The position numbers were made by a program, and so were the translations under genes. Shown one piece after another: positions 1,311-27,562 of a stretch of 60,793 nt of DNA (its first letter is position 1; every line of letters begins with the position of its first letter). The notes under the pieces are model-generated. The model made no database searches and was not told where the DNA came from. It saw nothing but the letters and a program-made list of their open reading frames with translations. The stretch spans positions 1 to 60,793 of the forward strand of contig CAZCWO010000001.1 of assembly GCA_964502335.1 (NCBI GenBank). Reading direction: 5' to 3'. This DNA is from an uncultured Rhodobacterales bacterium (lineage in GTDB: Bacteria; Pseudomonadota; Alphaproteobacteria; Puniceispirillales; GCA-002684695).

Positions 1311-1414
1311 CTAAAAAAACCTTGCCCTTATTGTAATCTAATAATTAATTGATATTAATTATCAAAATAGTTTTTAAAATTTATGACAAATTAAAGTTAT
1401 TAATTTTCTACCTA

Positions 1415-2092: not shown

Positions 2093-2122
2093 TAATTTTC
2101 TTCTTTATTATAAATATAAAAA

Positions 2123-4883: not shown

Positions 4884-4980
4884 TCTATAAAAATAAATTG
4901 AAGTAAACTATTTGTACGCGAAAACTAGTTAGATAATATTATCAGATTTCGCGTACAAGTTATTTCCTAGAGACAAAATT

Positions 4981-6057: not shown

Positions 6058-6308
6058 AATTTCTTTTCCCCATAGTTTATAAAATAACACTTTTAAATTA
6101 AATGGCGTTAAAATCATTATTTTTAAAATGGTTTCCCATTAAATTAATAAAAATCGCATATAATTTTATTTTGAACAATATTAATAGTGCGATAAATATA
6201 TATATAATATATAATCAATATATTTATTTTTATTGCAATAAATTTTTAGTATTTTAATATTTTAAATGAGTAATTTAATTGAAACTATATAATTAGAAAG
6301 ATAACTTT

Positions 6309-9462: not shown

Positions 9463-9467
9463 AAAAA

Positions 9468-11507: not shown

Positions 11508-12787
11508 TTATGATCTCCAGCATACACATTGTTTGAATCAATAACATTTTCCAAGTAGTTTTTAATTTGTGTGGCTACATTTTTTGAATCTTCATCAAAG
11601 CCATAGAGAATTCCAGATTTTCTCTTGGTCATCCAGTTCAGTCCATTAAAATATAAACCTTTAATATTAGTTGACCCTTGATTTGTGTTGGGATAACCCA
11701 TTTCATCAGTAATAGGGAAATTAATCCAAGAAAAATCATAAATAAAGCCTGTTGCCCATATAATTGTTTTGATTTTATTTTTAATAAAATCTAAAGATCT
11801 TACTATTTCGATCACTTTATTATCTCTCGTTGCTTCTCCATCGAAATCTTCATGAGAAGGGGAAGGAACATTTAATTTTGAGAGATTAATGTAATCATCA
11901 ATTTTTTTTCTGAATTCCTTTGCATAATTATCGGCATAGTGAATATCTGAAATCAGATTATCATCAAATATAAAATGATTATCGGAGACATCAATAAGGC
12001 GTCCATATAAATTAACCCCATTACGATGAAATTTATGGAGACTTAAAGTCTTGCCTCCATCTCTTCCAGTAAGGTGGGGATCTCCAGCAAATCTTAAACT
12101 TGGATTTTCAAGCATGTCTGGAGTTCTTTCCAAAAGCTTCATTTCTTTTTGCCAGGTGATGCAATCTTTACCTCTATAACTTCTAGGTAATCTTCCACTT
12201 TTCCCAACACATAGGTGTACTTTTTTTCCAGCAGAAAGTAAGTCTTCAACCACTTGGCATCCAGATTGTCCAGAACCAACAACTAACACTTCACCCTTAT
12301 CTAAGGTGAAAGGATTTTTATAACTTTCAACATGTATCGATTTTATTGAGTTTGGTAATTTTTTTGAAACATTTGGAATTTTTGGAAGTTGATGAGTTGA
12401 CGTTGCAATGACAACAACGTCTGATAAAAAATCTTTGGTATTGGTTTCAAGAAGAAATTTTGAATTTTGAATTTTTATAGATTTAATATTAATATTTTTT
12501 CTTATAGGTACATTAAAACTTTTAGCCCATTTCGTTATATATTCTACAAACTCATCTCTTTTCATAAAACCATTAGGATTAATGCCTTTATATGGATGTT
12601 CAGGAAAATTAAGTGTCCAATTTGGAGTTACTAAACAAAATGAATCCCATCTTTTTTCTTTCCATGAATTTGCTATATCACCTTTATCAACAACTATATG
12701 TGGCAAGTTAAATTTTGTTAAATAATAACTCACACCAAGTCCACCTTGACCAGCACCTATGATTACAATCTTATGATATTCAGGCAT
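11498..12787 (-). CDS. two-dinucleotide-binding flavoprotein oxidoreductase (class-B monooxygenase-like, CzcO/FMO-type)
   Basis: It has IVIIGAGQGGLGVSYYL (FAD) and VLVVGSGQSGCQVVEDL (NAD(P)). The ORF track starts at a TTG at 12817. I prefer the ATG at 12787 (MPEYHKIVIIGAG), which removes the overlap with the upstream gene. Confidence 0.8.
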   Translation of the reverse strand: MPEYHKIVIIGAGQGGLGVSYYLTKFNLPHIVVDKGDIANSWKEKRWDSFCLVTPNWTLNFPEHPYKGINPNGFMKRDEFVEYITKWAKSFNVPIRKNINIKSIKIQNSKFLLETNTKDFLSDVVVIATSTHQLPKIPNVSKKLPNSIKSIHVESYKNPFTLDKGEVLVVGSGQSGCQVVEDLLSAGKKVHLCVGKSGRLPRSYRGKDCITWQKEMKLLERTPDMLENPSLRFAGDPHLTGRDGGKTLSLHKFHRNGVNLYGRLIDVSDNHFIFDDNLISDIHYADNYAKEFRKKIDDYINLSKLNVPSPSHEDFDGEATRDNKVIEIVRSLDFIKNKIKTIIWATGFIYDFSWINFPITDEMGYPNTNQGSTNIKGLYFNGLNWMTKRKSGILYGFDEDSKNVATQIKNYLENVIDSNNVYAGDHKCM

Positions 12788-12801
12788 TAAAAATGACTCA
12801 A

Positions 12802-13341
12802 CTACCTTGCTGTCCAACGATCAGTATCTTTTCGACCAAATTTAACTATATCCAAAGGTGGAGGATCTGCTTTGGCGTGACTTATCATATGATGAACCTG
12901 ACCACGATGATGAATTTGGTGTTGAAATAAGTTGCTTAAACATAACTTTAATGGAAGAGAAAAATATTCATCTTCATCCATTCCAACTGCTTTAAAAGAA
13001 AATTCACTATCTAAGTCGGTTTGAGACACATTGCCACAATAATCTGAATACCATTTATCATTTTTACGGTGTCCCTCTTCCAAATCATCAAAATCATCAT
13101 GAACAATTTCATCAAGGGAATTAAATGTGATTGGTTTCTTTTCTAATCTTTGACGATATAAAATATCTGCTAGAAGTATATGATTCATTGTATTATGAAT
13201 TGATCTAAAAAAAGCCCTTCTATCTTTTCTCCGTGCTTCGTCTGTAAGACCTCTTAATGCGTTATATAGCCTATTGTTAGCCCATTCATTATATTTTGCA
13301 GCAGTATAGATATCTATTAATGTACCCATAATTTTTTCCAA
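12802..13341 (-). CDS. DinB-family four-helix-bundle protein
   Basis: 179 aa with the DinB-like His pattern (..NHILLADILY.. and ..FQHQIHHRGQVHHM..). Confidence 0.7.
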   Translation of the reverse strand: MEKIMGTLIDIYTAAKYNEWANNRLYNALRGLTDEARRKDRRAFFRSIHNTMNHILLADILYRQRLEKKPITFNSLDEIVHDDFDDLEEGHRKNDKWYSDYCGNVSQTDLDSEFSFKAVGMDEDEYFSLPLKLCLSNLFQHQIHHRGQVHHMISHAKADPPPLDIVKFGRKDTDRWTAR

Positions 13342-13365
13342 TCAATTTTAATCACAATTATTTAT

Positions 13366-13674
13366 TTATATAGAGTTACTCTTGGCACGCACCTCATACT
13401 CTGCTGGTTTTGGAGAACCACCCTTTAAATACATATGAGAAAACATATCAATAATTTTATCTAAATCTGGGCTTGCAACAAATTCTTTATAATCATCAAC
13501 ACTTTCCCAGATTGTAAAGGCGATTCTTTCTATATCGTTCGGTTTAGCGAGTAACATAGCTTGAATAAAACCTTTATGTTTTTGCATAATTTTTACTGCG
13601 GAAGATTCAAAGAGTTTACTATCTTCACCCCAATAATCTGGAGAACATTTCCAGGCTGACATTCTGACAAACAT
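13366..13674 (-). CDS. small ABM/Dabb-fold (antibiotic-biosynthesis-monooxygenase-like) protein
   Basis: 102 aa. The size and the pattern ..AFTIWESVDDYKEFVASP.. are typical of ferredoxin-like ABM domains. Confidence 0.55.
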   Translation of the reverse strand: MFVRMSAWKCSPDYWGEDSKLFESSAVKIMQKHKGFIQAMLLAKPNDIERIAFTIWESVDDYKEFVASPDLDKIIDMFSHMYLKGGSPKPAEYEVRAKSNSI

Positions 13675-13800: not shown

Positions 13801-14658
13801 TTGAGCAATATTATTTACGGAAATTATAATCAGGAAGAATTAGATCTTGAATATGATATGAGAAGAAGATGTCCTCATTTCGCAGAGACTTTTGCCTCAA
13901 TGGAAATACATAATAAAAGAGTTGTATCAAATTACGAATGCCTTCTTGATGTCTCATTTGGTGAATCTGCTGGAGAAAAACTTGATATATGGCCTGGAAG
14001 AGGAGGAGCGCCAATATTACTTTTTATTCATGGAGGGTATTGGAAAGCATTTGACAAAGAAATGTTCAGGTTTATAGCGGAACGTTTTATTGAGGTTGGT
14101 GCATGTGTTGTTTTAAACAATTACGATCTTTGCCCAAAAGTTACTATGGATGAAATCACTAGACAAAACAGAGAAGCTCTTTCATGGATTTATAAAAATG
14201 CTTCAAGTTTTGGAGGGGATCAAGGACGCATACATGTTACAGGGCATTCTGCTGGAGGTCATCTTACAGGAATGTTGATGGCAACAAATTGGGAAGATTA
14301 TGGGCTTCCTTTTGATGTTGTTAATGGAGCGGTACCATTAAGTGGTCTTTTTGATCTTGAACCACTCCGTGTATCATATTTAAATGATGATCTTCATATG
14401 AATAAAGAAGAATCACAAAGAAATAGTCCCTTATTAAATATCCCGAAATGGATGCCACCAACAGTAGTTGCAGTAGGTGGGGGGGAAACTAATGAATTTA
14501 GAAGGCAATCAAGAATATATACTGATGAGTGTAGAAAAAATGGTTTTGATGTAAGCTATCTTGAAGTTGGAAATCATGATCATGTTAATGTAGCTGGAGA
14601 ATATAGAAATAAATTAAGCCCGCTTACATCAACAATATTCTCTCAAATGAATATTTAA
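13801..14658 (+). CDS. alpha/beta hydrolase, arylformamidase/esterase-like
   Basis: It has an oxyanion motif HGGYW and a nucleophile elbow GHSAGGHL. It starts with TTG at 13801. Confidence 0.8.
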   Translation: MSNIIYGNYNQEELDLEYDMRRRCPHFAETFASMEIHNKRVVSNYECLLDVSFGESAGEKLDIWPGRGGAPILLFIHGGYWKAFDKEMFRFIAERFIEVGACVVLNNYDLCPKVTMDEITRQNREALSWIYKNASSFGGDQGRIHVTGHSAGGHLTGMLMATNWEDYGLPFDVVNGAVPLSGLFDLEPLRVSYLNDDLHMNKEESQRNSPLLNIPKWMPPTVVAVGGGETNEFRRQSRIYTDECRKNGFDVSYLEVGNHDHVNVAGEYRNKLSPLTSTIFSQMNI

Positions 14659-14725: not shown

Positions 14726-16027
14726 GTGAGCAAAACATATGATGCTATAATTGTTGGGGCTGGAATAATTGGTTGTGCAATCGCCTTTGAAATGAGTAAA
14801 AGTGGAAAGAAAGTTTTATGCATAGAAAAAAATGCTGCTGCTGGTTCTGGATCGACAAGTAACTCATGTGCAATTATTCGAACACACTATTCAACACTTT
14901 ATGGTGCAGCTTTAGCTAAATCAAATTATTTTTTCTGGGAAAATTGGGCTGAATATCTAGAAGCTAAAAAAAATGAAAAATTAGCAACATATCGTGAGGT
15001 TGGATGCCTATTTACATGTTTTGAAAAGAATCAGTTTGGATATAAATTAGAAGAAATTGCCAACAAACTCAATATTCCATACGAAGTTTGGACCCCAAAT
15101 AAAATGAAAGAAAAACTTCCCATTATTAATCCAGGACATTTTTACCCCCCAAAAAAAATTGATGATTCGAATTTTGGAACTAAAAATGGTGATATGAGGT
15201 ATGTTTTATTTTTCCCAAAAGCAGGTTATGTAAACGATCCTATGTTTGCCACTCAAAATATTCAATCGGCCGCTGAACGAAAAAATGCACATTTTATTTT
15301 TGGAAGTAAAGTCACTTCAATTAATAAATCAAATGGAAAAGTTTTAGGGGTTTCAATAGATAATAACGAGAAAATATTAGCACCGGTTGTTGTTAATGCT
15401 TCAGGCCCTCATTCTTTTAAAATCAATGAAATGGCAGGCGTAACTGACGGTATGAATATAAAAACCAGAGCTCTACGTGTTGAAGTAGCTCATGTTCCAT
15501 CCCCAAAAGATTTTGATTTTGAGAAAGATGGATATATTTGTTCTGATGATGATATAAGTGGTTATTGGCGTCCTGAAGTTGGAAATAGAATTTTGATAGG
15601 AAGCCATGAAAATGATTGCGACCCATCAGAATGGGTTGACCCAGATAACTACAATAATCAGATTACCGAAAAATCTAGATTACAAGCTATGAGAGGCGCT
15701 CAAAGATTTCCCAAAATGGGCATTCCAAATAATGTACAAGGTATAGCGGACTTGTATGACGTTGCGGATGATTGGATACCAATTTATGACAAGTCTGATT
15801 TACCAGGATTTTATATGGCAATTGGCACCAGTGGAAATCAATTTAAAAATGCACCGGTTGCTGGAAAAATGATGAAAGAGTTAATAGATTATGTTGAATC
15901 TGGGAACAACCATGATACTGATCCTATGCAATATCAATTGCCAAATATTAACTTTAAATTAGATATGTCTTACTGTTCAAGATTGAGAGAAATCAATCAA
16001 GAAAGCAGTTTCTCTGTTGTGGGTTAA
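14726..16027 (+). CDS. FAD-dependent oxidoreductase, DAO family (sarcosine-oxidase/D-amino-acid-oxidase-like)
   Basis: It starts with GTG and has an N-terminal YDAIIVGAGIIGCAIAFEMSKSGKKVLCIEK Rossmann motif. 433 aa. Confidence 0.85.
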   Translation: MSKTYDAIIVGAGIIGCAIAFEMSKSGKKVLCIEKNAAAGSGSTSNSCAIIRTHYSTLYGAALAKSNYFFWENWAEYLEAKKNEKLATYREVGCLFTCFEKNQFGYKLEEIANKLNIPYEVWTPNKMKEKLPIINPGHFYPPKKIDDSNFGTKNGDMRYVLFFPKAGYVNDPMFATQNIQSAAERKNAHFIFGSKVTSINKSNGKVLGVSIDNNEKILAPVVVNASGPHSFKINEMAGVTDGMNIKTRALRVEVAHVPSPKDFDFEKDGYICSDDDISGYWRPEVGNRILIGSHENDCDPSEWVDPDNYNNQITEKSRLQAMRGAQRFPKMGIPNNVQGIADLYDVADDWIPIYDKSDLPGFYMAIGTSGNQFKNAPVAGKMMKELIDYVESGNNHDTDPMQYQLPNINFKLDMSYCSRLREINQESSFSVVG

Positions 16028-16958
16028 AAAAGTGAATAATAAAAATCCTGCATTTATTGACTGTTATGGGGATCTGGGAAAAAGGTTTTCATTAGAAATG
16101 AAATCAATTATCCCAAACTTAGATGTTTTCTATGATAAACCTAACAATGAACAAGAAATCATTAAAAGAATAAATGGCAGAAAAAACATCATGGTTTACA
16201 TGAGTTTCTTATCTTCTAATATTTTGAATTCCTGTTCAGATTTAAAAACTATTTCATACTTGTCTACAGGCCTGCAAACTCATGGCGACTTAAAAGAAGC
16301 AAAAAAATTAGGTATAATTTTTGAAGGTGTCAAAGGATATGGTGATAGAGCTGTTGCTGAGCACACTATTGCTTTGGCTTTATCTTCGATCAAAAAAATA
16401 GTAGAGATGGATAATTCTGTTAGATCTGGAAATTGGCAACTTATCAGAACGGAAGAAATTACTGGGAAAACTTTTGGCCTAATTGGTTTAGGTGCTATAG
16501 GTCTAGAAACTGCAAAGATTGCATCTGCATTGGGTGCGAATGTAATAGGTTGGAACCGTTCAGATCAAACTATAGACATTCCTATAAAAAAAGTTTCTCT
16601 TAATGAAGTGTTAGAAAAGTCTGACATTATTTCTCTCCATTTAGCATTAAATAAAGAAACTGAAAAATTTTTTAATAAAGCCTTAATTTCAAAAACTAAA
16701 AGGGGAGTTATCTTAATTAATACTGCTCGAGCTGGTATTGTTGATGAAAAAGCTCTAATTTCAGAATTATTATCTGGGCATATAGGGCATTGCGCATTAG
16801 ATGTTTTTCATAATGAACCTATGCCAAAAAATCATCCAATATCCAAAATGAAAAATGTTACTTTAACCCCCCATTCAGCATGGCTAACCACTCAATCAAT
16901 GGATAAACTGCTTTTTGCAGGATTAAATTTATTAAAAAAACATATTAAACAAAGTTAA
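16017..16958 (+). CDS. D-isomer-specific 2-hydroxyacid dehydrogenase (NAD-binding)
   Basis: It has GLIGLGAIGLETAKIA (GxGxxG), LINTARAGIVDEKAL, ALDVFHNEP and TPHSAW (catalytic His). The start is uncertain (TTG 16017 or GTG 16032). Confidence 0.9.
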   Translation: MWVKKVNNKNPAFIDCYGDLGKRFSLEMKSIIPNLDVFYDKPNNEQEIIKRINGRKNIMVYMSFLSSNILNSCSDLKTISYLSTGLQTHGDLKEAKKLGIIFEGVKGYGDRAVAEHTIALALSSIKKIVEMDNSVRSGNWQLIRTEEITGKTFGLIGLGAIGLETAKIASALGANVIGWNRSDQTIDIPIKKVSLNEVLEKSDIISLHLALNKETEKFFNKALISKTKRGVILINTARAGIVDEKALISELLSGHIGHCALDVFHNEPMPKNHPISKMKNVTLTPHSAWLTTQSMDKLLFAGLNLLKKHIKQS

Positions 16959-16993
16959 AATTAGATAAATTTACTAATTAAAATTATCTAATT
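16959..16993. terminator. candidate bidirectional hairpin between convergent genes
   Basis: A perfect 10-bp inverted repeat, AATTAGATAA (16959-16968) and TTATCTAATT (16984-16993), with a 15-nt loop. It lies exactly between the two convergent stop codons. The stem is all A/T except one G:C pair, so it is weak. Confidence 0.3.
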
Positions 16994-18194
16994 ATGTTTC
17001 CAGTGCACAAATAGATTTTTCTATTCTTTTACAGGCTTCAACTAGAATTTTATCTGACTTTGCAAAGCACAATCTTAAAAAATTAGGCATACCGAATTCA
17101 GATCCAGGGACTATTGCAATTTGAGCATGCTCGAGAAGGTACATGCATATATCAATATCAGATTTTAATTTTAATCCTGAAAAAGTTGATTTACCAATTA
17201 ACCCTGTGCAGTCAATAAAAAAATAAAAGGCTCCCTCTGGATTTAAAAATGTCAAGTTATTAATTTTTGATAATTTTTCTTGGACCAAATTTTTTCTTTT
17301 AGTATAAACCATGTTCCATTCCTTAATAATATCTTTTGATCCATTCAAAGCAGCTAAAGCTGCTGCTTGTCCCACTGATGAAGGGTTTGTCGTTGATTGA
17401 CCCTGTAGTTTAGTCATTGCTCTTATTAGATCTAATGGTCCTCCTGCATATCCTATTCTCCAACCAGTCATTGCATGTGACTTTGAAACTCCATTAACAG
17501 TAAGAACTCTATCTTTTAAATCAGGAGCTACTTCTAAAATATTTGCAAAAGATTTATTTTCGTATGTAAATACTTCATAAATATCATCACAAATTATTGA
17601 TACATTTTTATGTTGGCGAAGAGTGTCAGCCAATGACAAAAGATCACTAGATGAATATATAGCCCCTGTAGGATTTCCAGGAGAATTTAATATTAGCCAA
17701 CGAGTATTTTTATTTATAGCTTTGGATAATGTTTCAGGTGTGATTTTATAATGATCTTCTTTCGAACAAGAAACTATTATAGGTATTCCATCAGCAATCT
17801 TTACCATGTCAGGATAACTTACCCAATAAGGCGATGGAATTATAACTTCATCATTTGAATTCAGAGTAGAAACAAGTGCATTAAAAATTATTTGTTTTGC
17901 TCCAGTCCCAACAATGATTTCCTCTGAGGAATAGTGTATTTTATTATCTTGAAGAAACTTTTTAGAAATAGCTTCACGTAATTCTAGCGTGCCACGAACA
18001 TCTGTGTATTTAGTATGCCCATCGTGAGCCGCTTTAAATGCAGCATCAATAATAAATTTTGGTGTATTGAAATCTGGCTCACCTTCACTTAACTCTATAA
18101 TATCCTTTCCCTCTTGTTTTAATTCACGAGCTAACTGAGCCATCTTGACTGTTCCAGAAGTCCGAATATTTTTAATTTTAGTACTAATTTGCAA
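16992..18194 (-). CDS. class I/II PLP-dependent aminotransferase (aspartate-aminotransferase-like)
   Basis: 400 aa, with NSPGNPTG, and with SKSHAMTGWRIGY containing the PLP lysine. Confidence 0.9.
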   Translation of the reverse strand: MQISTKIKNIRTSGTVKMAQLARELKQEGKDIIELSEGEPDFNTPKFIIDAAFKAAHDGHTKYTDVRGTLELREAISKKFLQDNKIHYSSEEIIVGTGAKQIIFNALVSTLNSNDEVIIPSPYWVSYPDMVKIADGIPIIVSCSKEDHYKITPETLSKAINKNTRWLILNSPGNPTGAIYSSSDLLSLADTLRQHKNVSIICDDIYEVFTYENKSFANILEVAPDLKDRVLTVNGVSKSHAMTGWRIGYAGGPLDLIRAMTKLQGQSTTNPSSVGQAAALAALNGSKDIIKEWNMVYTKRKNLVQEKLSKINNLTFLNPEGAFYFFIDCTGLIGKSTFSGLKLKSDIDICMYLLEHAQIAIVPGSEFGMPNFLRLCFAKSDKILVEACKRIEKSICALET

Positions 18195-18279
18195 TAGTTT
18201 GATCCTTGCAAGATATATATTTTTTATATATTTTAAATATATTTATAATTAATTTGCTAATAATAATCAATGGCGTTTA

Positions 18280-18621
18280 ATGCTTCGATATAGTTCAAAA
18301 AATTCTATTTATAAAATAGATGGCTCCAGGATGGATTTAGCTAAAGAGTACAGAGATAACTTAAAAGGACCCTATAGTTTTGAACTTCAAAATATTCTTG
18401 ATAGAATGAGGACTTCATCTTTAAATGGACGTTTTGTTTTAATCGTAATCGAACCGTTCAAGAGATTTGGACTTGCAAGATTAAGTGGTAAAAGAGGTGA
18501 ACCTCCTAAAATTATTGATAATGTAATTTATAATTCAATTTCCGAAGCCGAATGGGATATTTTTAAAAGAAGGTGGTATGAACTTACAGGTTATAATATA
18601 AACATAAAGGATCCATCTTAA
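18280..18621 (+). CDS. small hypothetical protein, in the position of a DMFase small subunit
   Basis: 113-aa ORF (alternative start M18 at 18331). Its stop overlaps the ATG of the next gene (TAATG), indicating translational coupling. I recognise no family, and the subunit idea rests on position only. Confidence 0.5.
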   Translation: MLRYSSKNSIYKIDGSRMDLAKEYRDNLKGPYSFELQNILDRMRTSSLNGRFVLIVIEPFKRFGLARLSGKRGEPPKIIDNVIYNSISEAEWDIFKRRWYELTGYNINIKDPS

Positions 18622-20774
18622 TGTTAAGCTCAACAAGAATTATAGGTTATTGTCAGCCTTTAGTAATAAATCAGGGTGAAACTACACAATTAAAAATTTC
18701 TAGTAATGGACCTGATAGTTGTGAATTCGAAGTTTTGCGGGTGATCTGTGCAGATATTGATCCATTAGGCCCTGGTTCAAAATTTGAAAAGCAAGATTGG
18801 CAAAAATCTAAAAAAATTAAAATTAAAAATCAAAAAATTAATATTGGATCTTTTGCTTTTATTTCCTCCGCACCAAATATAAAAAATGAACAACAAATAT
18901 ACATTTCGATGTATATATGGCCAACTATAATTTCAAAACCAAAACAAGTTATATTTAATTGGGGTAATTTATCAATATTTATAAGATCGGATGGAAAATG
19001 TGTTTTTGAATTTAATTCAATAAAAGTCGTTTCTAATCAATGTTGTTTTGCCAGAAAGTGGTATAAAGTAAGTTGTTTAGTTGATTTTTCCAAAAAAATT
19101 ATTTCACTTAACATTAATAATCTGAATCCTGAAACTGATGAATTACCGGTTGATAAATCTGAATTAAAAATTGATCTAAAAAAATTTTCTTCAAAAATTT
19201 ACCCAATTTGTTTTGCTGCAAAAATTGATAAAATAGAAAAAAATAAAATTGTTACCAATAATCACTACAACGGGAAAATAGAAAGGCCACAAATTAAGTT
19301 AAATTCTAATAGTGTTCTTTTCGCAAAATGGGATTTTTCTCAAAAGATAAACACAGATGAAATAATTGATATAGGACCAAATAAACTTGTTGGAAATTTA
19401 GTAAACGGGCCAATGCGTGCAGCTACCGGTCATAACTGGAATGGTTCGGTAAAAAGTTGGAATCAAAATAAAGATCATTATGGAGCAATACATTTTCATG
19501 AAGATGATTTAATTGATTGCAAATGGGATACAAATTTTACAATCAAAGCACCCCATTCTGCAAAATCTGGATATTATATTGCCAGGATTAAAGCTAAAGG
19601 AACTCAAAGTGACGTTCCTTTTTTTATTTCAGAAAAGTTTAGACCAATTAAAGGAATAAAAAAAAATAAAGTGTTATTTTTAGCTCCTACTGCAACTTAT
19701 CTGTCTTATTCTAATACACATGTTAAATTTGATAGCCTTAATACAGAAAATTTATTTGAAGGTCCTATTACTCTCAGTGAAGATGAATTATATTTAAATG
19801 AACACAGAGAATTAGGTTTATCTCATTATGATACCCATAGCGATGATTCAGGTGTAGTTTTTGTAAGTGAAAGACGACCAATTTTGAATATGAGACCAGG
19901 TTTATATACATTTAACTACATAAACGACACACACATTATAAAATGGTTAGAAAAAAAAGGCTACGACTATGACATTGTCACAGATGAGGATTTGCATAAA
20001 TATGGAATAGGTCTATTAGAGAATTATCTTGTCGTTATTACAGCTTCTCATCCAGAGTATTTTTCAACTAAAATGTGGGATGCGCTTTTTGAATACCAAA
20101 ACAAAGGTGGTAGGCATATGTATCTTGGAGGTAACGGGTTTTATTGGCGTGTTGCCTATTCAGATTATTATCCAGGTGTCGTTGAAAATAGAAGGGGTAT
20201 ATCTGGTGTCAGAACTTGGGAAGGTGAACCAGGAGAAAATCATTTAAGTTTTACTGGAGAGCCTGGAGGGCTATGGCGATCATCAGGAAGGGCACCCCAG
20301 TCAATTGTAGGCAATGGCTTTTGTGCAACAATGTTTTTAAAGTCAACTTGGTTTCGTAGGAGTAAAGCGTCTTACAAATCTAAATATGAATTCATTTTTA
20401 AAAATTTAAATGATAAAAAAATTGGAGATTTCGGATACAGGGGTGGAGGTTGTGTAGGCCTTGAGATTGATCGCTGGGATAAAGATTTGGGTTCTCCTTT
20501 AAATTCGGAGGTTTTAGCAACCTCAGAAAACATCAATGAAGATGGGCTTCTTTCAGGAGAAGAATTTATAACTACAACTCGTGCAATTACTGGCTCCAAT
20601 AATGCCAAAGTTCGTGCAGATATGGTTTTTTTTACAACTCCTGGAGGCGGAGCTGTTTGGTCAACAGGGTCTATTGCTTGGGCGACATCACTATTGTGGA
20701 ATAATTCCCAAAACTCAGTTTCAAAAGTGACAGAAAACGTATTAAATCGATTTTTAGATAATAAAAAATTTTAA
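18621..20774 (+). CDS. N,N-dimethylformamidase large (beta)-subunit-like protein
   Basis: 717 aa. The C-terminal half has the patterns I associate with this family: KVLFLAPTATYLSYSN, LVVITASHPEYFSTKMWDALFEYQNKGGRHMYLGGNGFYWRV and GGGAVWSTGSIAWATSL. Confidence 0.7.
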   Translation: MLSSTRIIGYCQPLVINQGETTQLKISSNGPDSCEFEVLRVICADIDPLGPGSKFEKQDWQKSKKIKIKNQKINIGSFAFISSAPNIKNEQQIYISMYIWPTIISKPKQVIFNWGNLSIFIRSDGKCVFEFNSIKVVSNQCCFARKWYKVSCLVDFSKKIISLNINNLNPETDELPVDKSELKIDLKKFSSKIYPICFAAKIDKIEKNKIVTNNHYNGKIERPQIKLNSNSVLFAKWDFSQKINTDEIIDIGPNKLVGNLVNGPMRAATGHNWNGSVKSWNQNKDHYGAIHFHEDDLIDCKWDTNFTIKAPHSAKSGYYIARIKAKGTQSDVPFFISEKFRPIKGIKKNKVLFLAPTATYLSYSNTHVKFDSLNTENLFEGPITLSEDELYLNEHRELGLSHYDTHSDDSGVVFVSERRPILNMRPGLYTFNYINDTHIIKWLEKKGYDYDIVTDEDLHKYGIGLLENYLVVITASHPEYFSTKMWDALFEYQNKGGRHMYLGGNGFYWRVAYSDYYPGVVENRRGISGVRTWEGEPGENHLSFTGEPGGLWRSSGRAPQSIVGNGFCATMFLKSTWFRRSKASYKSKYEFIFKNLNDKKIGDFGYRGGGCVGLEIDRWDKDLGSPLNSEVLATSENINEDGLLSGEEFITTTRAITGSNNAKVRADMVFFTTPGGGAVWSTGSIAWATSLLWNNSQNSVSKVTENVLNRFLDNKKF

Positions 20775-20778
20775 TCTT

Positions 20779-22860
20779 ATGAATAGAATTGGAATTGATA
20801 TAGGTGGAACATTTACAGATATAGTTTTAGAAAATAATGGACAGGTATTCTCTAAAAAACTTCTAACCACTAGCAATAATCCTGAGATAGCCGCTTTAAA
20901 TGGTATCAATTATTTATTATTTGAAAATAATTTAAAATTAAAAGAAATTGACACCATTATACATGGAACAACGCTTGCTGCAAATGCACTGATTGAAAGA
21001 AAAGGCGCAAAAACCGCATTTATAACTACTAAAGGATTTCGAGATGTTTTAGAAATGAGGTACGAAAAAAGATTTGATCAGTATGATTTAAACTTAGAAT
21101 TTCCTGAACCACTAGTTTCACGAGATTTAAGAATATGCGTTAATGAAAGATGTTTAGCAAATGGAGAAATTCTAAAGTCTCCTTCAAAATTTGAATTAGG
21201 TAAAGTAGTCAAAAAATTAATTAAATCAAATATTGAAGCAGTTGCGATTGGTTTTCTGCATTCCTATTTAAATCCTAGCAATGAGAAGATAGTAGCAAAA
21301 TTTTTTAAACAAAATTTACCTAAACATGTAACAATATGCCAAAGTTCTGAAATTTCACCAGAAGATAGAGAATACGAAAGGTTTTCTACAACTGTAGCAA
21401 ATGCATATATCAGGCCTGTTATCATTAATTATATAAATCTATTTAATAAAGAATTACTAAAAATCGGATTTAAGGGTAATTTCTTTCTATTATCCTCAAG
21501 CGGAGGATTAATCAACTTAGAACATTCAAAAAAAGTACCCATCAGATTAATAGAGTCTGGACCTGCAGGTGGAATCATATTAGCTAAAAATATTTCCAAG
21601 AAGCTTAAAGATGAAAACACTATTGCATTAGATATTGGCGGAACAACAGCTAAAATATGTTTTCTTACAAAAGGTGAACCTCAAATTACAAGACGTCTAG
21701 AAGTCGCTAGAGCGTGGAAAAACAAAAAGGGAAGTGGTCTACCTTTAAAAATCCCAGCCATGGATCTTATAGAGATTGGAGCTGGAGGAGGTTCAATTGC
21801 TAGATCAGATCTACTCGGACGTCTAATCATAGGTCCAGAAAGCTCCGGAGCTAATCCTGGACCTGCTTGCTATAATAAAGGTGGGAAAAATTCTACAATT
21901 ACAGATGCAAATTTAATTTTAGGCAGAATATCAAGAAATTCTTTTGCAGATGGAATAATTAAAATTGATAAAACCAAAGCCCAACAAGTTATCAAAACAG
22001 AGTTTGTTTCAAATAAAAAATTTGAATCTATTAGTTGGGCATCGGCCGGTATTATAGAAATCAGTGAACAACTTATGGCTGACGCTTTAAGAATTCACGG
22101 CTTAGATTTAGGTAAAAATATTACCGATAGTAGCTTGGTAGTTTCAGGAGGAGGAGGCCCAATTCATGCGACAGGGATTGCAGATAAATTAGAGATTAAA
22201 AAAATCATAGTACCTTACTTAGCGGGTGTAGGTTCTGCACTAGGATTTTTAGATGCGCCTGTCAGTTACCAGATAGCTAAAAGCATAGTTAGATTTTTGT
22301 CAAAGGTTAAAGTTGTAGAATTTAAAAAAACCATAGTTAGTATAAAAAAAAATATTTTCTCAATTCTTAAAGATAGTATTCCTAAAAATGAAACCTTAAA
22401 TTTTACTATTAAAGCTGAACTAAGATATAGGGGGCAGGGGAATGAGATTTCAATTGATATAACCAAACTAGTTAAATCTAAATCAATTTTTTTAAAACTT
22501 AAAAAAATATTTGTGAATGAATATGAGAAAAAGTTTGGTTTTTCTATGCCAAAATTAGATATAGAATTAATGTCAATTATTATATCTGGTGATTGTCGTA
22601 CAAAAAACTCATTAAATTTTAGCCCAAATAAAAATATAAAAAAATCTGAAAAGCTTTTCCAATCAGTTTTTGATTTTAAATCAAATAAATTTATTAAATA
22701 TAAAGTTTTTGAAAGAGAAGGTCTTCCTAATAGGTTTATTGAAAATGGACCTTGTCTAATCAAAGAAACTCAAACCACTACAATTGTTCCTCCTGGGTGG
22801 CAAGTCACCAAACATAAAGAAAAACATTTAATCTTAACTAAAAACACACACAATACTTAA
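20779..22860 (+). CDS. hyuA: hydantoinase A/oxoprolinase-family subunit, second copy
   Basis: 693 aa, with MNRIGIDIGGTFTD and ALDIGGTTAKI. It starts 4 nt after the stop of the DMFase-like gene. Confidence 0.9.
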   Translation: MNRIGIDIGGTFTDIVLENNGQVFSKKLLTTSNNPEIAALNGINYLLFENNLKLKEIDTIIHGTTLAANALIERKGAKTAFITTKGFRDVLEMRYEKRFDQYDLNLEFPEPLVSRDLRICVNERCLANGEILKSPSKFELGKVVKKLIKSNIEAVAIGFLHSYLNPSNEKIVAKFFKQNLPKHVTICQSSEISPEDREYERFSTTVANAYIRPVIINYINLFNKELLKIGFKGNFFLLSSSGGLINLEHSKKVPIRLIESGPAGGIILAKNISKKLKDENTIALDIGGTTAKICFLTKGEPQITRRLEVARAWKNKKGSGLPLKIPAMDLIEIGAGGGSIARSDLLGRLIIGPESSGANPGPACYNKGGKNSTITDANLILGRISRNSFADGIIKIDKTKAQQVIKTEFVSNKKFESISWASAGIIEISEQLMADALRIHGLDLGKNITDSSLVVSGGGGPIHATGIADKLEIKKIIVPYLAGVGSALGFLDAPVSYQIAKSIVRFLSKVKVVEFKKTIVSIKKNIFSILKDSIPKNETLNFTIKAELRYRGQGNEISIDITKLVKSKSIFLKLKKIFVNEYEKKFGFSMPKLDIELMSIIISGDCRTKNSLNFSPNKNIKKSEKLFQSVFDFKSNKFIKYKVFEREGLPNRFIENGPCLIKETQTTTIVPPGWQVTKHKEKHLILTKNTHNT

Positions 22861-22878
22861 GTTAAAAAGAGAAAACTT

Positions 22879-24495
22879 ATGAAAAACGAAAATAGTCAAA
22901 AAATCCATCAAAATATCTTATGGAATGAATTGATTTCAATATGTGAAGAACAAGCTAATAATCTTCTTAAAGCAGCTTTTGGACCTATAGTAAGAGAAGC
23001 AGGAGATATTTCAGCAGGAGTTTTTGATGACAAATATAATATGCTTGCTCAAGCAATTACGGGGACACCAGGACATGTAAATACAATGGCCAAATCTGTT
23101 CAAGCAATGATCTCTGAAGTTCCTAAAAACTCTTTTTCTGAAGGTGATGTTTTGATAACCAATGATCCATGGCTAGGCGCTGGTCATATATTCGATTTTG
23201 TAGTGGTTACACCAGTTTTTCATAAAAAGATACTAGTAGCTTACTTTGCTTCAACTTGTCACATTACTGACATTGGAGGTATTGGGTGGTCAGCTGAAGC
23301 CAGAAGTATGTTTGAAGAAGGAACATTAATCCCTGTATCTTTTTTAAGAAAAAATTTTGAAGTTCAAGAGCAATTACTGAATATAATTTGCAGCAATTCT
23401 AGAGTGTCTAATGAGGCAAGAGGTGACATACTATCTTTAATGAGTTCAAATGATACTGGGGTTGAACGTTTGTTAAAATTGTTTAAAAAATATAAATTAC
23501 CAAACTTAACATCGATAGCAAAATTTATTTTTGCAAGTTCAAATAATGCAATGATGTCTATTTTAAGACAATTACCAAAAGGCGTATTTGAAAATAAGCT
23601 AAATCTAGATGGTTACGATCAAAGTATTTTTCTAACAGCAAAAGTTTCCATCACATCTAAACATATAGAAGTTGACCTAAACGGATCATCTGAAGCAATA
23701 AATAGAGGAATTAATTGCCCATTAAATTATTCAATAGCTTATGCTTCATATGGCATTAAAGTCGCTATTTTCCCTGATATCCCTAACAATGCTGCTTCAC
23801 TAGAAACGATCAAAGTAAAGGCACTTCCAGGCCTTATAGTAAGTGCTCAAAAGCCTAGCCCAGTAACATCGCGTCACGTAATAGGCCATGCTTTGCCTGA
23901 TTTGGTCTTGGGTTGTTTAGCTAAAGCGCTACCAAATAAAATAATTTCTGAAAGTTCAGGTGCATTATGGACTATTTCTTTAACTGGCGAAGATAGAATT
24001 AAGTTTTCATCATTAAATGTTGCTTTAGGAGGAATGGGGGCAAGACCTAACTCAGATGGCCTCTCAACAACTGCCTTTCCTTCAGGTGTAGGGGCTGTTT
24101 CAGTAGAGGTTTCAGAAAATGCCGCACCGGTTATATATCATAAGAAAGAACTAATTCCAAATAGTGGAGGGAAGGGAAAATTTAGAGGAGGATTAGGACA
24201 AGAAATTGTTATTGGAGCTTTAACCAATGAACCATATTTTATTTCCGCAGCAGCATTTGAGAGAACTAGAGAGGGACCAAATGGTCGAGAAGGTGGAGAA
24301 AGAGGATCTAAAGGAAGCGTTACTATAAGCGATGGAAGAATTGTAAAAGACAAAGGTAACTACATGATTAAAGCTAATGATACTGTATGCCTAAGGACAC
24401 CAGGAGGAGGAGGGTTTGGAAAGTTTAATCAAAGAAAAAATGAAAAAAAAATTACTGACCTAAAATTCGGCTACATTACCAAATCTAATTTATAG
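22879..24495 (+). CDS. hyuB: hydantoinase B/oxoprolinase-family subunit, second copy
   Basis: 538 aa, with ..TNDPWLGAGHIFD.. and ..GGKGKFRGGLGQEIV... Confidence 0.9.
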   Translation: MKNENSQKIHQNILWNELISICEEQANNLLKAAFGPIVREAGDISAGVFDDKYNMLAQAITGTPGHVNTMAKSVQAMISEVPKNSFSEGDVLITNDPWLGAGHIFDFVVVTPVFHKKILVAYFASTCHITDIGGIGWSAEARSMFEEGTLIPVSFLRKNFEVQEQLLNIICSNSRVSNEARGDILSLMSSNDTGVERLLKLFKKYKLPNLTSIAKFIFASSNNAMMSILRQLPKGVFENKLNLDGYDQSIFLTAKVSITSKHIEVDLNGSSEAINRGINCPLNYSIAYASYGIKVAIFPDIPNNAASLETIKVKALPGLIVSAQKPSPVTSRHVIGHALPDLVLGCLAKALPNKIISESSGALWTISLTGEDRIKFSSLNVALGGMGARPNSDGLSTTAFPSGVGAVSVEVSENAAPVIYHKKELIPNSGGKGKFRGGLGQEIVIGALTNEPYFISAAAFERTREGPNGREGGERGSKGSVTISDGRIVKDKGNYMIKANDTVCLRTPGGGGFGKFNQRKNEKKITDLKFGYITKSNL

Positions 24496-24517
24496 TAAAA
24501 TGAACTCATGATTTTTT

Positions 24518-24616
24518 ATAGTAAGTTGCTATTTAGCTTACAAAGGAAAAATTGCATTGGTCACGGGAACCAGTTCCAGTTTAGGATCGTGCATCATCAC
24601 TAAAAACGGTTTTTGA
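24518..24616 (+). pseudogene. N-terminal remnant of a short-chain dehydrogenase/reductase gene
   Basis: The frame reads I-V-S-C-Y-L-A-Y-K-G-K-I-A-L-V-T-G-T-S-S-S-L-G-S-C-I-I-T-K-N-G-F-*. This is the GKxALVTGxSSxxG Rossmann start of an SDR. It has no start codon (ATA at 24518) and stops after about 33 codons. Its last 17 nt overlap the 3' end of the convergent MttB-family gene. Confidence 0.35.
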
Positions 24617-26153
24617 AGGGCTTAATAATTTCCTTTGGAATTTTAATAGGAAAACTTTCTCTAATTTTATTATCAGTTTCGTCATCAATATAAACTGGAT
24701 AATGAGAATTTAATATTTCTCTGGCATAACTTTCTGCCCTTTTTCTTATATCTGGAGAGCCCTCTTCTTCCCATTCCTCCTGACGCGATCTATCAGCCAA
24801 ATTTGGATATAAATACTCTGTTTTCATCAAAGACAATGTTTGAGATGACCTTAAAAAATGACCCTCACCTTGAACTGTTTTCTTAATCACGTCATATGAT
24901 AATGTTTCATCATTAACCTCAATTCCACGGACTGCTCTCATAACCATCCCTAACATTTCATTATCAATTACCAACGATTCATATGAACAGCCCATTAGGC
25001 TTGCCATCATTCCAGAAGATTCTGAAACATTGTTACACCCCGCTAGAGCGGCCATTACAATTGATATACCTTTTTCATAACCAGACTGCGCGTCAGGGCT
25101 TTTTGCATCAGTCATTCCAGCTCCTACAGAACTAGCCAGGCCATAGTGATTGGTAAGTTGAGCAGAAGCAGCACTCATAATAGCCTCCTCACCTCCCCCA
25201 CCAGAAAAGGCTCCTGTCCTTAAGTCTGTCACAAATGGCCAAGGCCCAAAAATTACTGGGTGCCCAGGCTTAATAAGATCGATAAGCATCAAACTTGCCA
25301 ATGTTTCGGCCAAAGATTGAACCAAACAACCAGCTAAAGCTGCTGGAGCAGTTGCCCCGGATTGAGGGGCAATAACCACCCAAATTGGTGCTTGCAATTC
25401 CAGGGAAGCAATAGCCACTTCACAGTTTTCAGTTCCATACTCTAAAGGTGATACCACTGTACATCCTCCGCCATGACAGAAAGGTCTTTTGACGAATTGA
25501 CCATCACCGCCAGCAAAAATATCCAACATTTCTAAAGTTGGCTTAACATGCTTTCCATCAGAAAAAGTTAGAGCTGTATGCTTTTTGGTTCCAACCAAAC
25601 TTGCATAAGCAGTATTAATATCCGCCATATAAAGATCATGGCTTAGCTCAGTAGGAACTACAAACCTCGAATAACTATGAATATTATCCAAGTAGTCAAC
25701 CATTCTGGCAATATCGTACACATCACTAATGGTCGAAGGGCGATATTTTTTTGCCCCTAAATCAAGAACAGTTACGGCCTCTCCTGCCCCAAACAGATTA
25801 ACTTTATTTCCAGAAAGTTCGATATCATGTTTTGGATCTCTTCCATATAAAACAAAGTCTCTTCCTGCACGAGCAATTACATCTTCCACAAGAGACCTGG
25901 GGAAACAAAGACGTCCTTTTTCATTAATATTAAATCCATTTTGGACAGCCACCTCAACCAACTCAGGCAATGGATTTCCCATTCCTAAATTTTCTAAAAC
26001 ATCTAACGCAGTCGAATGAATTTTTTTAATGTCATTATCACTTAGAGGTTTATAGTTTCCTCCCTGCATTCCCTTTGATATTACAGGCTCAATTTTTTCA
26101 AAATCGAGCAAATTTTTTCTTCTTTTATTTTTTCTTTTTACTTCTCTAATCAT
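24600..26153 (-). CDS. MttB-superfamily methyltransferase, non-pyrrolysine type (quaternary-amine:corrinoid methyltransferase-like)
   Basis: 517 aa, uninterrupted, with no in-frame TAG. The N-terminal region ..YKPLSDNDIKKIHSTALDVLENLGMGN.. and the overall length are typical of the trimethylamine methyltransferase (MttB) family. Confidence 0.8.
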   Translation of the reverse strand: MIREVKRKNKRRKNLLDFEKIEPVISKGMQGGNYKPLSDNDIKKIHSTALDVLENLGMGNPLPELVEVAVQNGFNINEKGRLCFPRSLVEDVIARAGRDFVLYGRDPKHDIELSGNKVNLFGAGEAVTVLDLGAKKYRPSTISDVYDIARMVDYLDNIHSYSRFVVPTELSHDLYMADINTAYASLVGTKKHTALTFSDGKHVKPTLEMLDIFAGGDGQFVKRPFCHGGGCTVVSPLEYGTENCEVAIASLELQAPIWVVIAPQSGATAPAALAGCLVQSLAETLASLMLIDLIKPGHPVIFGPWPFVTDLRTGAFSGGGGEEAIMSAASAQLTNHYGLASSVGAGMTDAKSPDAQSGYEKGISIVMAALAGCNNVSESSGMMASLMGCSYESLVIDNEMLGMVMRAVRGIEVNDETLSYDVIKKTVQGEGHFLRSSQTLSLMKTEYLYPNLADRSRQEEWEEEGSPDIRKRAESYAREILNSHYPVYIDDETDNKIRESFPIKIPKEIIKPFKNRF

Positions 26154-26426: not shown

Positions 26427-26978
26427 ATGAACTCTCAGGATTTTAAATTGAAAAAAGAAAAATCAGTAATTGATAATAGCTGGGAAAAACCATTATTACA
26501 TCTTCTAAAACAGCATAATGTTAGGTTTCTTCCTTACGTGCCCGATGCTGGCCATGCTGGTCTTATTTCATTATCTGAACAAGATGAATTTATTCAACCA
26601 ATTGTATTAACGACTGAAGAAGAAGGCATTGCCTTTTCAAGTGGATCATGGCTGGGTGGGGGAAAATCTGTTCTCCTTATGCAAAGTAGCGGCGTTGGTA
26701 ATTGCATCAACATGTTGACAATGTTAGTAAATTGCAATTTTCCTTTTGTCACACTAATTACTATGCGTGGTGAATTTGGAGAGTTTAACTCTTGGCAGAT
26801 ACCAATGGGGCAAGCCACTCCGACATGCCTTGAAACAATGGGGTTGATTGTTCATAGAGTAGATAAAAAAAAGGAAGTCCTCCCAGTTATCGATGCCAGT
26901 CTTTATTCTGCTTTTTCAAGTGATCAACAAATAGCTGTTTTATTGTCACAAAAATTACTTGGAAGAAAAGAATGGTAA
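26427..26978 (+). CDS. comD: ThDP-dependent decarboxylase alpha subunit (sulfopyruvate decarboxylase ComD-like; pyrimidine-binding half)
   Basis: 183 aa, resembling the N-terminal TPP-enzyme domain (..LTTEEEGIAFSSGSWLGG..). It overlaps the next gene by 7 nt (ATGGTAA). Confidence 0.7.
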   Translation: MNSQDFKLKKEKSVIDNSWEKPLLHLLKQHNVRFLPYVPDAGHAGLISLSEQDEFIQPIVLTTEEEGIAFSSGSWLGGGKSVLLMQSSGVGNCINMLTMLVNCNFPFVTLITMRGEFGEFNSWQIPMGQATPTCLETMGLIVHRVDKKKEVLPVIDASLYSAFSSDQQIAVLLSQKLLGRKEW

Positions 26979-27562
26979 AAGTAAATAACTCTTTAAAAAG
27001 ACGTGAGGTTGTAAAAAAGATTATAGATCACTGTGGGGAAGCTAGAGTAATTACTGGCCTTGGTTCTGCTACCTACGATGTTTTCGATGCTGGTGACAGA
27101 GATGCTAATTTTTACCTATGGGGTGCAATGGGTGGTGCAGCAATGACTGGCCTTGGTCTGGCTTTAGCAAAACCAGATATACCTTCAATAGTCATCACAG
27201 GTGATGGGGAACAATTAATGGGTATGGGGTCTATAGCTTCAATTGGTGTCCAAAAACCTAAAAATTTAGCTATTATTGTCCTGGATAATGGTTATTTTGG
27301 TGAAACTGGAATGCAAAAAAGTCATACATCTCAAGGGGTTGATCTTCATTTAATTGCTAAAGCTTCAAATTTTAAGCACAGTTATTTAATTAGCTGCCAA
27401 GAAGATTTAGACAATTTTATTAGCGTTCTACCGCCCTCAGACGGGCCAATATTTGCAAATATCAAAATTGAATCTAAAAACCCTCCAAGAAGCTTGCCAA
27501 TTCTAGATGGAGTAGAAATAAAAAATAGATTTCGTCGAAGCCTTGGATTTGACCCTCTTTAA
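26972..27562 (+). CDS. comE: ThDP-dependent decarboxylase beta subunit (ComE-like; diphosphate-binding half)
   Basis: 196 aa with the ThDP motif GDGEQLMGMGSIASIGVQKPKNLAIIVLDNGYFGETG. Confidence 0.75.
   Translation: MVKVNNSLKRREVVKKIIDHCGEARVITGLGSATYDVFDAGDRDANFYLWGAMGGAAMTGLGLALAKPDIPSIVITGDGEQLMGMGSIASIGVQKPKNLAIIVLDNGYFGETGMQKSHTSQGVDLHLIAKASNFKHSYLISCQEDLDNFISVLPPSDGPIFANIKIESKNPPRSLPILDGVEIKNRFRRSLGFDPL

Follow-up and report, generated by a model that had tools for sequence, protein, structure and literature searches.

Why would a marine bacterium encode an amidase of the N,N-dimethylformamidase (DMFase) family, known for its action on a man-made solvent, directly beside an ATP-dependent hydantoinase-type enzyme? 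The question is raised by contig CAZCWO010000001.1 of an uncultured Rhodobacterales bacterium, analysed here over positions 1 to 60,793; this whole stretch of 60,793 nucleotides (nt) is called the window below. Four consecutive genes, named DMFalpha, DMFbeta, HyuA2 and HyuB2 in the following, are at the centre of the analysis:

18280-18621, + strand: DMFalpha, small subunit of the DMFase family (DMF_alpha, PF26354-like), 113 amino acids (aa), assigned from PF26354 in its homologues and from a structure model
18621-20774, + strand: DMFbeta, large subunit of a predicted mononuclear-iron amidase of the DMFase family, 717 aa, assigned from Pfam DMFA2_C, Protein Data Bank (PDB) matches and catalytic residues
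20779-22860, + strand: HyuA2, HyuA-type ATPase subunit of an ATP-dependent hydantoinase/oxoprolinase/lactamase, 693 aa, assigned from Pfam and PDB matches
22879-24495, + strand: HyuB2, HyuB-type subunit and partner of HyuA2, 538 aa, assigned from Pfam Hydantoinase_B and PDB matches

The answer that we reach is that this conserved pairing probably marks an undescribed breakdown route for a small nitrogen-rich compound. The components belong to known families; their combination is undescribed, as a first-pass annotation of this DNA had supposed, and our literature search found no paper naming both dimethylformamidase and hydantoinase. The same annotation had reported four open reading frames (ORFs), and we recover them, all on the + strand, at exactly the same coordinates and spacings: DMFalpha and DMFbeta meet in a TAATG stop/start overlap, 4 nt separate DMFbeta from HyuA2, and 18 nt separate HyuA2 from HyuB2.

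How firmly, then, can the first two genes be assigned to the DMFase family? The 717-aa protein matches Pfam DMFA2_C (PF20254, E 9.7e-90) over residues 266-694, and its PDB sequence matches are to an acylase (8huy, E 6e-114) and to DMFase itself (6lvb, E 8e-105, residues 6-714 aligned). Its AlphaFold2 (AF2) model, with a predicted local distance difference test score (pLDDT) of 76.9, was compared with the PDB using Foldseek; the template-modelling (TM) scores were 0.85/0.80 for DMFase 6lvb_A at 30% identity, 0.85/0.81 for 6lve_A and 0.81/0.80 for 8i5a_B at 32% identity (32-33% for the acylase), the remaining structures matching the jelly-roll domain alone. The protein had been called DMFase-like from its motifs, and this call stands, with a full-length match to DMFase-specific models and structures that goes beyond generic folds. 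The amidase is about equally distant from DMFase and from the N-acyl-amino-acid acylase.

In DMFase, the iron is bound by Y399, Y440 and E521, H519 and N547 are essential, and F693 of the neighbouring subunit gates the pocket (PMC7686228). The Tyr/Tyr/Glu iron site that the first-pass annotation had proposed to look for is present: Y363, Y403 and E479 of the window protein align with the three iron ligands, the essential His and Asn correspond to H477 and N505, and each of these residues is kept in 77-79 of 82 family members. The 2-Tyr-1-Glu site for Fe(III) is thus predicted to be intact, as is the catalytic pair of His and Asn. The pocket was compared at F693 only, where the gate residue is replaced by a Thr in the motif GEEFITTTRA. 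The T-x-T-R-A pattern in this loop is common to the window protein and the N-acetyl-(R)-beta-phenylalanine acylase, and its R654 is invariant in the 24 closest aligned relatives; across the wider family the position is Arg in 21 of 82 members and Pro, as in DMFase, in 34. The Thr/Arg loop with its invariant R654 hints at a carboxylate substrate, and by this alignment the amidase probably acts on a carboxylate-bearing N-acyl compound rather than on N,N-dimethylformamide (DMF).

That the 113-aa ORF is a real gene is shown by its 22 homologues (55-96% identity), whose conserved N-termini confirm the ATG at 18280 as its start. In 59 of 80 genomic loci the gene immediately upstream of DMFbeta is a homologue of it, which settles a doubt raised beforehand as to whether the small ORF is conserved beside the large-subunit gene. 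Its family is not readily apparent from sequence: no PDB match was found with either the single sequence or a 22-sequence profile, and our local Pfam copy gave no family for the ORF or for three of its homologues, despite precomputed PF26354 (DMF_alpha) matches on all 22. The AF2 model (pLDDT 84.9), however, retrieved from the PDB only the DMFase small subunit (6lvv_B/6lvb_B, E 5e-5, TM 0.66/0.60, root-mean-square deviation 1.7 Å over 89 columns), the next-best match having an E of 0.24; identity to that subunit is about 20%. The earlier suggestion of a DMFase alpha-like protein is therefore borne out by both the fold and the PF26354 matches, and genes 1 and 2 together encode an alpha/beta amidase of the DMFase family.

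Could this amidase be a genuine DMFase or N-methylformamidase, releasing methylamines to be handled by the product of the MttB-family methyltransferase gene found just downstream (24600-26153)? All the DMFase catalytic residues and the alpha/beta architecture are there, and “DmfA”-annotated proteins have been detected in central-Pacific metaproteomes (PMC9477243). One has to keep in mind, however, that the amidase AceAB is inactive on DMF in spite of its reportedly high identity to the subunits of DMFase (PMC11573777), so that membership of the family does not imply activity on DMF and specificity varies within it. The window protein is only about 30% identical to DMFase, it is equally close to the N-acetyl-beta-amino-acid acylase, and gate F693 is not conserved; moreover, MttB is absent from related loci, and the conserved neighbours process amino and keto acids rather than methylamines. 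Given the low identity and the replacement of the gate Phe by a Thr/Arg loop, a true DMFase is unlikely, and we regard the full scenario with methylamine release as very improbable. The locus was also considered as a DMF-degradation operon, a candidate that we rejected on the lost gate residue, the non-conserved MttB gene and the amino-acid-type neighbours.

What does the second pair of genes contribute? HyuA2 comprises the Hydant_A_N, Hydantoinase_A and Hydant_A_C domains (E 9.8e-48, 6.4e-80 and 3.1e-06, respectively) and carries the phosphate-binding motif DxGGTxxD as DIGGTFTD at residues 7-14, while HyuB2 is a Hydantoinase_B protein (E 2.7e-125); their naming as hyuA and hyuB in the first-pass annotation was correct. 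HyuA2 is matched best in the PDB by N-methylhydantoinase 7hk5 (319 bits), ahead of the 6yra entry (266 bits), and HyuB2 by the C-terminal half of 7hk5 (163 bits), ahead of 6yra_B (113 bits). Judged by the NCBIfam equivalog cut-offs, neither protein is an ortholog of the characterised members CapAB or acetophenone carboxylase: the caprolactamase models score 420.6 bits (CapA, HyuA2) and 161.2 bits (CapB, HyuB2) against cut-offs of 1000, and the Apc (acetophenone carboxylase) models score 68-209 bits against cut-offs of 1250-1500. From these matches, genes 3 and 4 are assigned to an ATP-dependent, ring-hydrolysing type of enzyme with two subunits, HyuA and HyuB, that has no characterised ortholog. 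A 165-aa antisense ORF at 22266-22763, which sits within the strongly supported HyuA2 frame, was discarded as an artefact.

The superfamily to which HyuA2B2 belongs also contains ATP-dependent carboxylases of the acetone/acetophenone type, and subunits of both do match the two proteins, with PDB scores lower than those of 7hk5 and 6yra. A carboxylase is nonetheless hardly to be expected here, as the best matches (7hk5, the 6yra entry and NCBIfam caprolactamase) are to hydrolytic enzymes and no third, gamma/epsilon-type subunit gene adjoins HyuB2, the next gene being MttB on the opposite strand. On these two grounds, we rejected a carboxylase role for HyuA2B2.

Is the adjacency of the two enzymes seen beyond this one genome? 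We searched for relatives from the amidase side by a genome scan (80 loci, plus the contigs encoding them) and from the HyuA2 side by a metagenome scan. The order DMFalpha-DMFbeta-HyuA2-HyuB2 recurs in L004, L007, L088-L090 and L092. Four truncated contigs, L091, L093, L095 and L109, show the DMFbeta-HyuA2 junction as well, so that the recurrence that the first-pass annotation had proposed to look for in marine genomes does exist: about ten marine contigs or metagenome-assembled genomes (MAGs) share the gene order of the window, with protein identities of about 60-72%. Two of them, L004 and L007, are uncultured Rhodobacteraceae MAGs in which DMFbeta is 62%, HyuA2 62-63% and HyuB2 68-69% identical to the window proteins. 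DMFbeta lies directly upstream of HyuA2 in all informative contigs at 60-66% identity (L088-L093, L095), and likewise in L109; the two genes overlap by 8 nt in L004, L007 and L109. The linkage is real, is kept over about 40-50% sequence divergence and survives one rearrangement, described below; it is restricted to one clade.

Two side observations concern these relatives. In L084 (10155-10527) and L085 (10155-10378), two independent assemblies that both end soon after, DMFbeta is directly followed by a frameshifted remnant of the HyuA2 start (MNRFGIDIGGTFT...); it may represent gene decay, and PrpD is fragmented in both as well. A divergent DMFbeta paralog (35-40% identity) lies on the - strand 4-8 kb downstream of hyuB2 in relatives of group 1, which keep the window's gene order, namely in L088 (17910-20114), L089 (20093-21676) and L092 (13976-15223), the copy in L088 adjoining genes similar to 3-hydroxyisobutyrate dehydrogenase and ATC hydrolase.

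In which setting do the four genes stand? They form the 3' end of a conserved catabolic island, whose other features, including an ATP-binding cassette (ABC) transporter with its substrate-binding protein (SBP), are the following:

1415-2092, - strand: isochorismatase-family hydrolase (Pfam)
2123-6117, - strand: Pot-type ABC transporter (Pfam), with its SBP gene at 4981-6117
6309-6983, + strand: second isochorismatase (Pfam)
6994-7749, - strand: GntR/FCD regulator (Pfam)
13801-14658, + strand: alpha/beta hydrolase, HSL-type esterase (Pfam BD-FAE, Abhydrolase_3)
14726-16027, + strand: DAO-family FAD oxidoreductase, 433 aa (Pfam DAO)
16017-16958, + strand: D-isomer-specific 2-hydroxyacid dehydrogenase (Pfam 2-Hacid_dh_C)
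16992-18194, - strand: AspAT-like class I/II aminotransferase, divergent from the amidase genes (Pfam Aminotran_1_2)
18195-18279, no strand: divergent intergenic region between the aminotransferase and amidase genes, with an AT-rich TATATTTTnTATATATTT-like motif

Three partners accompany the amidase constantly: the DAO-family flavoprotein, the D-2-hydroxyacid dehydrogenase and the divergent aminotransferase. The first two stand as a pair beside the amidase genes in all orthologous loci, including a reordered one (L099), and neither the position nor the orientation of the aminotransferase differs between the orthologous loci examined. Frequent partners are the HSL-type esterase, a PrpD-family protein, TRAP or Pot-type transporters, isochorismatase-fold hydrolases and M24 enzymes; the esterase, for example, is syntenic at 73-83% identity in L001, L004-L007, L084 and L087-L089, and at 64% in the more distant L009. 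Specific functions are less clear than families: the aminotransferase scores 518 bits with the NCBIfam aspartate transaminase model PRK06107 (cut-off 617), the DAO protein matches sarcosine oxidase beta weakly, and the isochorismatase-fold hydrolases reach 53-54 bits with RutB and N-carbamoylsarcosine amidohydrolase (1NBA, 53 bits). NCBIfam scans of the SBP, M24, PrpD, DinB, orf102 and isochorismatase proteins gave weak, non-specific matches from which no substrate could be identified. A TRAP transporter lies within the amidase core cluster of L001 and another beside the HyuA2B2 relative of L100, which hints at a carboxylate substrate.

Beyond the window's own arrangement, a second group of loci (group 2; GC 0.30-0.33, 49-54% identity) shows a changed gene order. 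L099 (GC 0.31) reads isochorismatase, HyuA2, HyuB2, DAO, 2-hydroxyacid dehydrogenase, aminotransferase (-), DMFalpha, DMFbeta and ABC transporter (-), with the ABC ATPase (59%) and permease following DMFbeta on the opposite strand, where the contig ends. In L105 a Pot-type ABC transporter is followed by an isochorismatase and then HyuA2, and in L108 DMFbeta is followed by a block of ABC transporter, SBP (74%), 6309-like isochorismatase (60%) and GntR genes. An ortholog of the isochorismatase at 1415 (60-64%) lies directly upstream of HyuA2 in L096, L097, L099, L103 and L105.

The first 36 kb of the window have a GC content of 0.29-0.41 (0.29-0.34 over the cluster) versus 0.39-0.46 in the rest, up to 60793; this AT-richer catabolic island could reflect horizontal origin or a local compositional bias. 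The AT-rich motif of the form TATATTTTnTATATATTT in the aminotransferase/DMFalpha intergenic region is kept in the window and in six loci of group 1, and is weak in L099 (eight-locus alignment A3); from this alignment it may be an operator or promoter element. Promoter and terminator scans over 18000-24800 returned fewer sites than shuffled controls and are uninformative in such AT-rich DNA. No tRNA gene was found by a tRNA gene search, and an Rfam search found no riboswitch, its sole match being PYLIS_3 within the MttB ORF.

This match (25022-25115) scores 42.2 bits, the gathering score being 38, and is probably due to conservation of the coding sequence in an MttB homologue of the non-pyrrolysine kind; the MttB-family gene (24600-26153, - strand) is an uninterrupted 517-aa ORF, and it is not conserved beside hyuB2 in related loci. 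Further along, at 26427-27562 on the + strand, we noted a two-subunit thiamine pyrophosphate enzyme resembling sulfopyruvate/phosphonopyruvate decarboxylase (106 and 133 bits, both below cut-offs) with an adjoining class-V aminotransferase. On the other side of the island, the - strand of 7801-13674 carries hyuB1-hyuA1, an MSMEG_0569-family flavin oxidoreductase (412 bits, cut-off 498), DinB and a conserved 102-aa ORF (13366-13674); this second Hyu pair (7801-11507) is 36% (A) and 29% (B) identical to HyuA2B2, and its operon is, in whole or in part, syntenic with the amidase cluster in L001, L004, L007, L009, L084, L085 and L087-L089. Finally, 165-6117 (- strand) comprises an M24 creatinase/ectoine-hydrolase-like gene, an isochorismatase and the Pot-type ABC transporter, a set that, with hyuAB and DAO, resembles creatine/creatinine catabolism, all matches being weak.

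What might these genes do together? Most likely, the locus serves to break down a cyclic amide or ureide solute by opening its ring and removing an acyl group. In the scheme that we propose, the Pot-type ABC transporter would import a small nitrogen-rich solute, and HyuA2B2 would open its lactam, hydantoin or cyclic-ureide ring at the expense of ATP, which would leave a linear amino acid with an N-acyl or N-carbamoyl group. The remaining amide bond would then be cut by the iron amidase, with the isochorismatase-family hydrolases assisting it or acting in parallel, and the DAO-type flavoprotein, the aminotransferase and the D-2-hydroxyacid dehydrogenase would convert the released amino acid, possibly N-methylated or of the D-form, into central metabolites. 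That the amidase and HyuA2B2 serve one shared pathway seems to us an evenly balanced proposition, and the order of the steps is less certain still: ring opening followed by deacylation is plausible, and a model of parallel entry fits the data about as well. The enzyme families, the alpha/beta architecture and the conserved linkage were found directly in the comparisons above, as were the catalytic residues; the pathway roles are proposed from them.

A more specific version can be put forward, in which the amidase and HyuA2B2 join with the isochorismatase-fold hydrolases and the DAO-type oxidase in a marine pathway, so far undescribed, for a natural N-methylated cyclic ureide, guanidine or lactam (creatinine-, N-methylhydantoin- or ectoine-like), the amidase cutting a tertiary or N-acyl amide after the ATP-driven ring opening. 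We consider it a speculative proposal with a small chance of being right. If it were true, the DMFase family would gain its first natural substrate, and there would be an explanation for the presence of “DmfA” in open-ocean metaproteomes.

Several observations weigh against a single shared pathway and are best taken together. The support for it, for all genes in the cluster, consists of sequence, structure models and gene context. The role of R654 as a carboxylate-binding residue is read from an alignment only, and the confidence of the AF2 model is low in exactly the R654 and gate loops. In group 2, the isochorismatase beside HyuA2B2 could by itself carry out the hydrolysis that follows ring opening, the iron amidase being otherwise employed. 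The unit of DAO, 2-hydroxyacid dehydrogenase, aminotransferase, DMFalpha and DMFbeta occurs without hyuAB in a sister clade (L001, L003, L005, L006, L086 and L087), the first four being higher-GC relatives with the same upstream genes; among cultured bacteria, Pelagibius sp. (P0034, 55% identity) is a carrier of this core. Conversely, a third group (L100-L102, about 45% identity) has HyuA2B2 relatives without the amidase. Neither enzyme, thus, needs the other. One observation on the sister clade speaks for the shared pathway: the slot after DMFbeta is taken there (L002, L086 and L087) by an M24 creatinase/ectoine-hydrolase-like gene on the opposite strand, a family that includes another kind of C-N ring or amidine opener. 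The amidase-hyuAB unit put forward in the first-pass annotation stands, therefore, in part: the linkage is conserved in one clade, but hyuAB is not a constant partner, and the unit of DAO, dehydrogenase, aminotransferase and the two amidase subunits is more widely conserved. In a neighbour-joining tree of DMFbeta (no bootstrap), the loci with linked HyuA2B2 all fall into one clade, whose sister is the clade lacking hyuAB; with all linked loci in one clade of an unbootstrapped tree, the linkage may stem from one gain and one rearrangement, not from selection acting repeatedly. Lastly, tight packing is the norm for this genome and is not distinctive of the four genes: the median intergenic distance between same-strand genes of the window is 6 nt, and 21 of 35 such distances do not exceed 20 nt. 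As nearly all genes of the window are equally tight, the translational coupling invoked beforehand carries little weight.

These observations also feed two other explanations of the linkage. In the first, the amidase, acting on an N-acylated form, and HyuA2B2, acting on a cyclised lactam form of the same or similar amino acids, would be independent entry enzymes into a shared trunk of DAO, aminotransferase and 2-hydroxyacid dehydrogenase, and would be neighbours by virtue of a shared regulon, neither of them using the product of the other. The complete amidase core of the sister clade speaks for this model, as do the HyuA2B2 relatives whose only companions are a TRAP transporter and a GntR regulator, both of which flank the pair in L100, and the five loci in which an isochorismatase-family hydrolase, not the amidase, adjoins HyuA2 (L099, L096, L097, L103 and L105). 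Against it, HyuA2 starts 4 nt after the end of DMFbeta or 8 nt inside it in the window lineage and group 1, a placement kept at about 60% identity and easier to explain if balanced co-expression matters. We hold parallel entry to be possible, if rather unlikely.

The second explanation denies any shared function: hyuA2B2 would be a separate cassette that landed in a crowded nitrogen-compound island of a streamlined genome. The 6-nt median spacing fits this view, and the island is rich in unrelated-looking amidohydrolase modules (the second hyuBA, two isochorismatases, M24 and MttB). The restriction of the linkage to one clade points the same way, and the frameshifted HyuA2 remnant of L084 and L085 implies that the gene is dispensable. 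Yet the linkage has outlasted both about 40-50% sequence divergence and the rearrangement of L099, where HyuA2B2 stands on the other side of the DAO, dehydrogenase and aminotransferase genes; mere adjacency is, to our mind, doubtful. We retain the shared pathway of ring opening and deacylation as a working model.

Why does this matter? About 4.5% of complete prokaryotic genomes contain homologues of DMFase (bioRxiv 10.1101/2021.03.18.435917), and one related DMFbeta cluster alone holds 376 member sequences; the DMFase literature that we searched reports DMF and xenobiotic substrates only and names no natural one. The island gives a DMFase-family enzyme a defined and conserved setting in low-GC pelagic bacteria that are abundant, and this setting of transporter, ring-opening ATPase, oxidase, aminotransferase and dehydrogenase directs the search towards small solutes of the carboxylated N-acyl or cyclic-amide kind. 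The island is a concrete set of genes for expression and a handle on the natural role of the DMFase family in the ocean. Solving it would reveal a route of dissolved organic nitrogen turnover in the ocean, together with a natural role for an unusual 2-Tyr-1-Glu iron hydrolase.

How does the locus compare with known systems? The DMFase DmfA1A2 of Paracoccus sp. DMF (6LVB-6LVE) has the same small-then-large gene order, two subunits, a three-domain large subunit (TM 0.85), the same small-subunit fold, the Y/Y/E iron ligands and the essential His and Asn. It differs in sequence (about 30% identity for the large and 20% for the small subunit), in having F693 where the window protein has a Thr/Arg loop, and in its setting, since the window genes stand in a marine amino-acid-type catabolic island and not in a methylotrophy context; DMF is an unlikely substrate for the window enzyme. 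The N-acetyl-(R)-beta-phenylalanine acylase (8HUY, 8I59, 8I5A) is the best sequence match, with the same catalytic residues and the T-x-T-R-A loop; unlike the window locus, which encodes a conserved alpha subunit, its PDB entries contain one kind of chain and no small subunit, and its N-terminal and middle regions align in part only (residues 6-116 and 228-712). The acetamiprid amidase AceAB of Pigmentiphaga sp. D-2, compared by description only, is an alpha/beta amidase of the DMFase family that is inactive on DMF (PMC11573777); its substrate, unlike the one proposed here, is a xenobiotic.

Parts of the proposed scheme have precedents in creatinine catabolism and, as described below, in N-methylpyrrolidone degradation. 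Creatinine catabolism employs an N-methylhydantoinase and an N-carbamoylsarcosine amidase (PMC6742649). The route from creatinine through N-methylhydantoin and N-carbamoylsarcosine to sarcosine recalls the island in its HyuAB-type enzyme, isochorismatase-fold hydrolases, weakly sarcosine-oxidase-like DAO protein and creatinase-like M24 protein, and, in related loci, in a creatininase near the L002 cluster and soxBDA near the L003 cluster. The window, by contrast, has no creatinine deaminase, its matches are weak and at the family level, and the known pathway has no place for the iron amidase.

As for HyuA2B2, the known HyuAB-type hydrolases, none of which is described with a DMFase-family amidase, differ in that the window proteins score far below the equivalog cut-offs. 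They nevertheless share with it, from N-methylhydantoinase 7HK5 and 6YRA (deposited as 5-oxoprolinase/hydantoinase) to CapAB and NmpAB, the domain architecture and the N-terminal DIGGTFTD. NmpAB resembles HyuA2B2 in its gene context too: the HyuAB-type nmpAB genes are clustered with nmpC, which encodes an FAD amino-acid oxidase, and act with it on N-methylpyrrolidone (PMC6987047, PMC12866759), just as HyuA2B2 stands in one island with a DAO-family FAD oxidoreductase.

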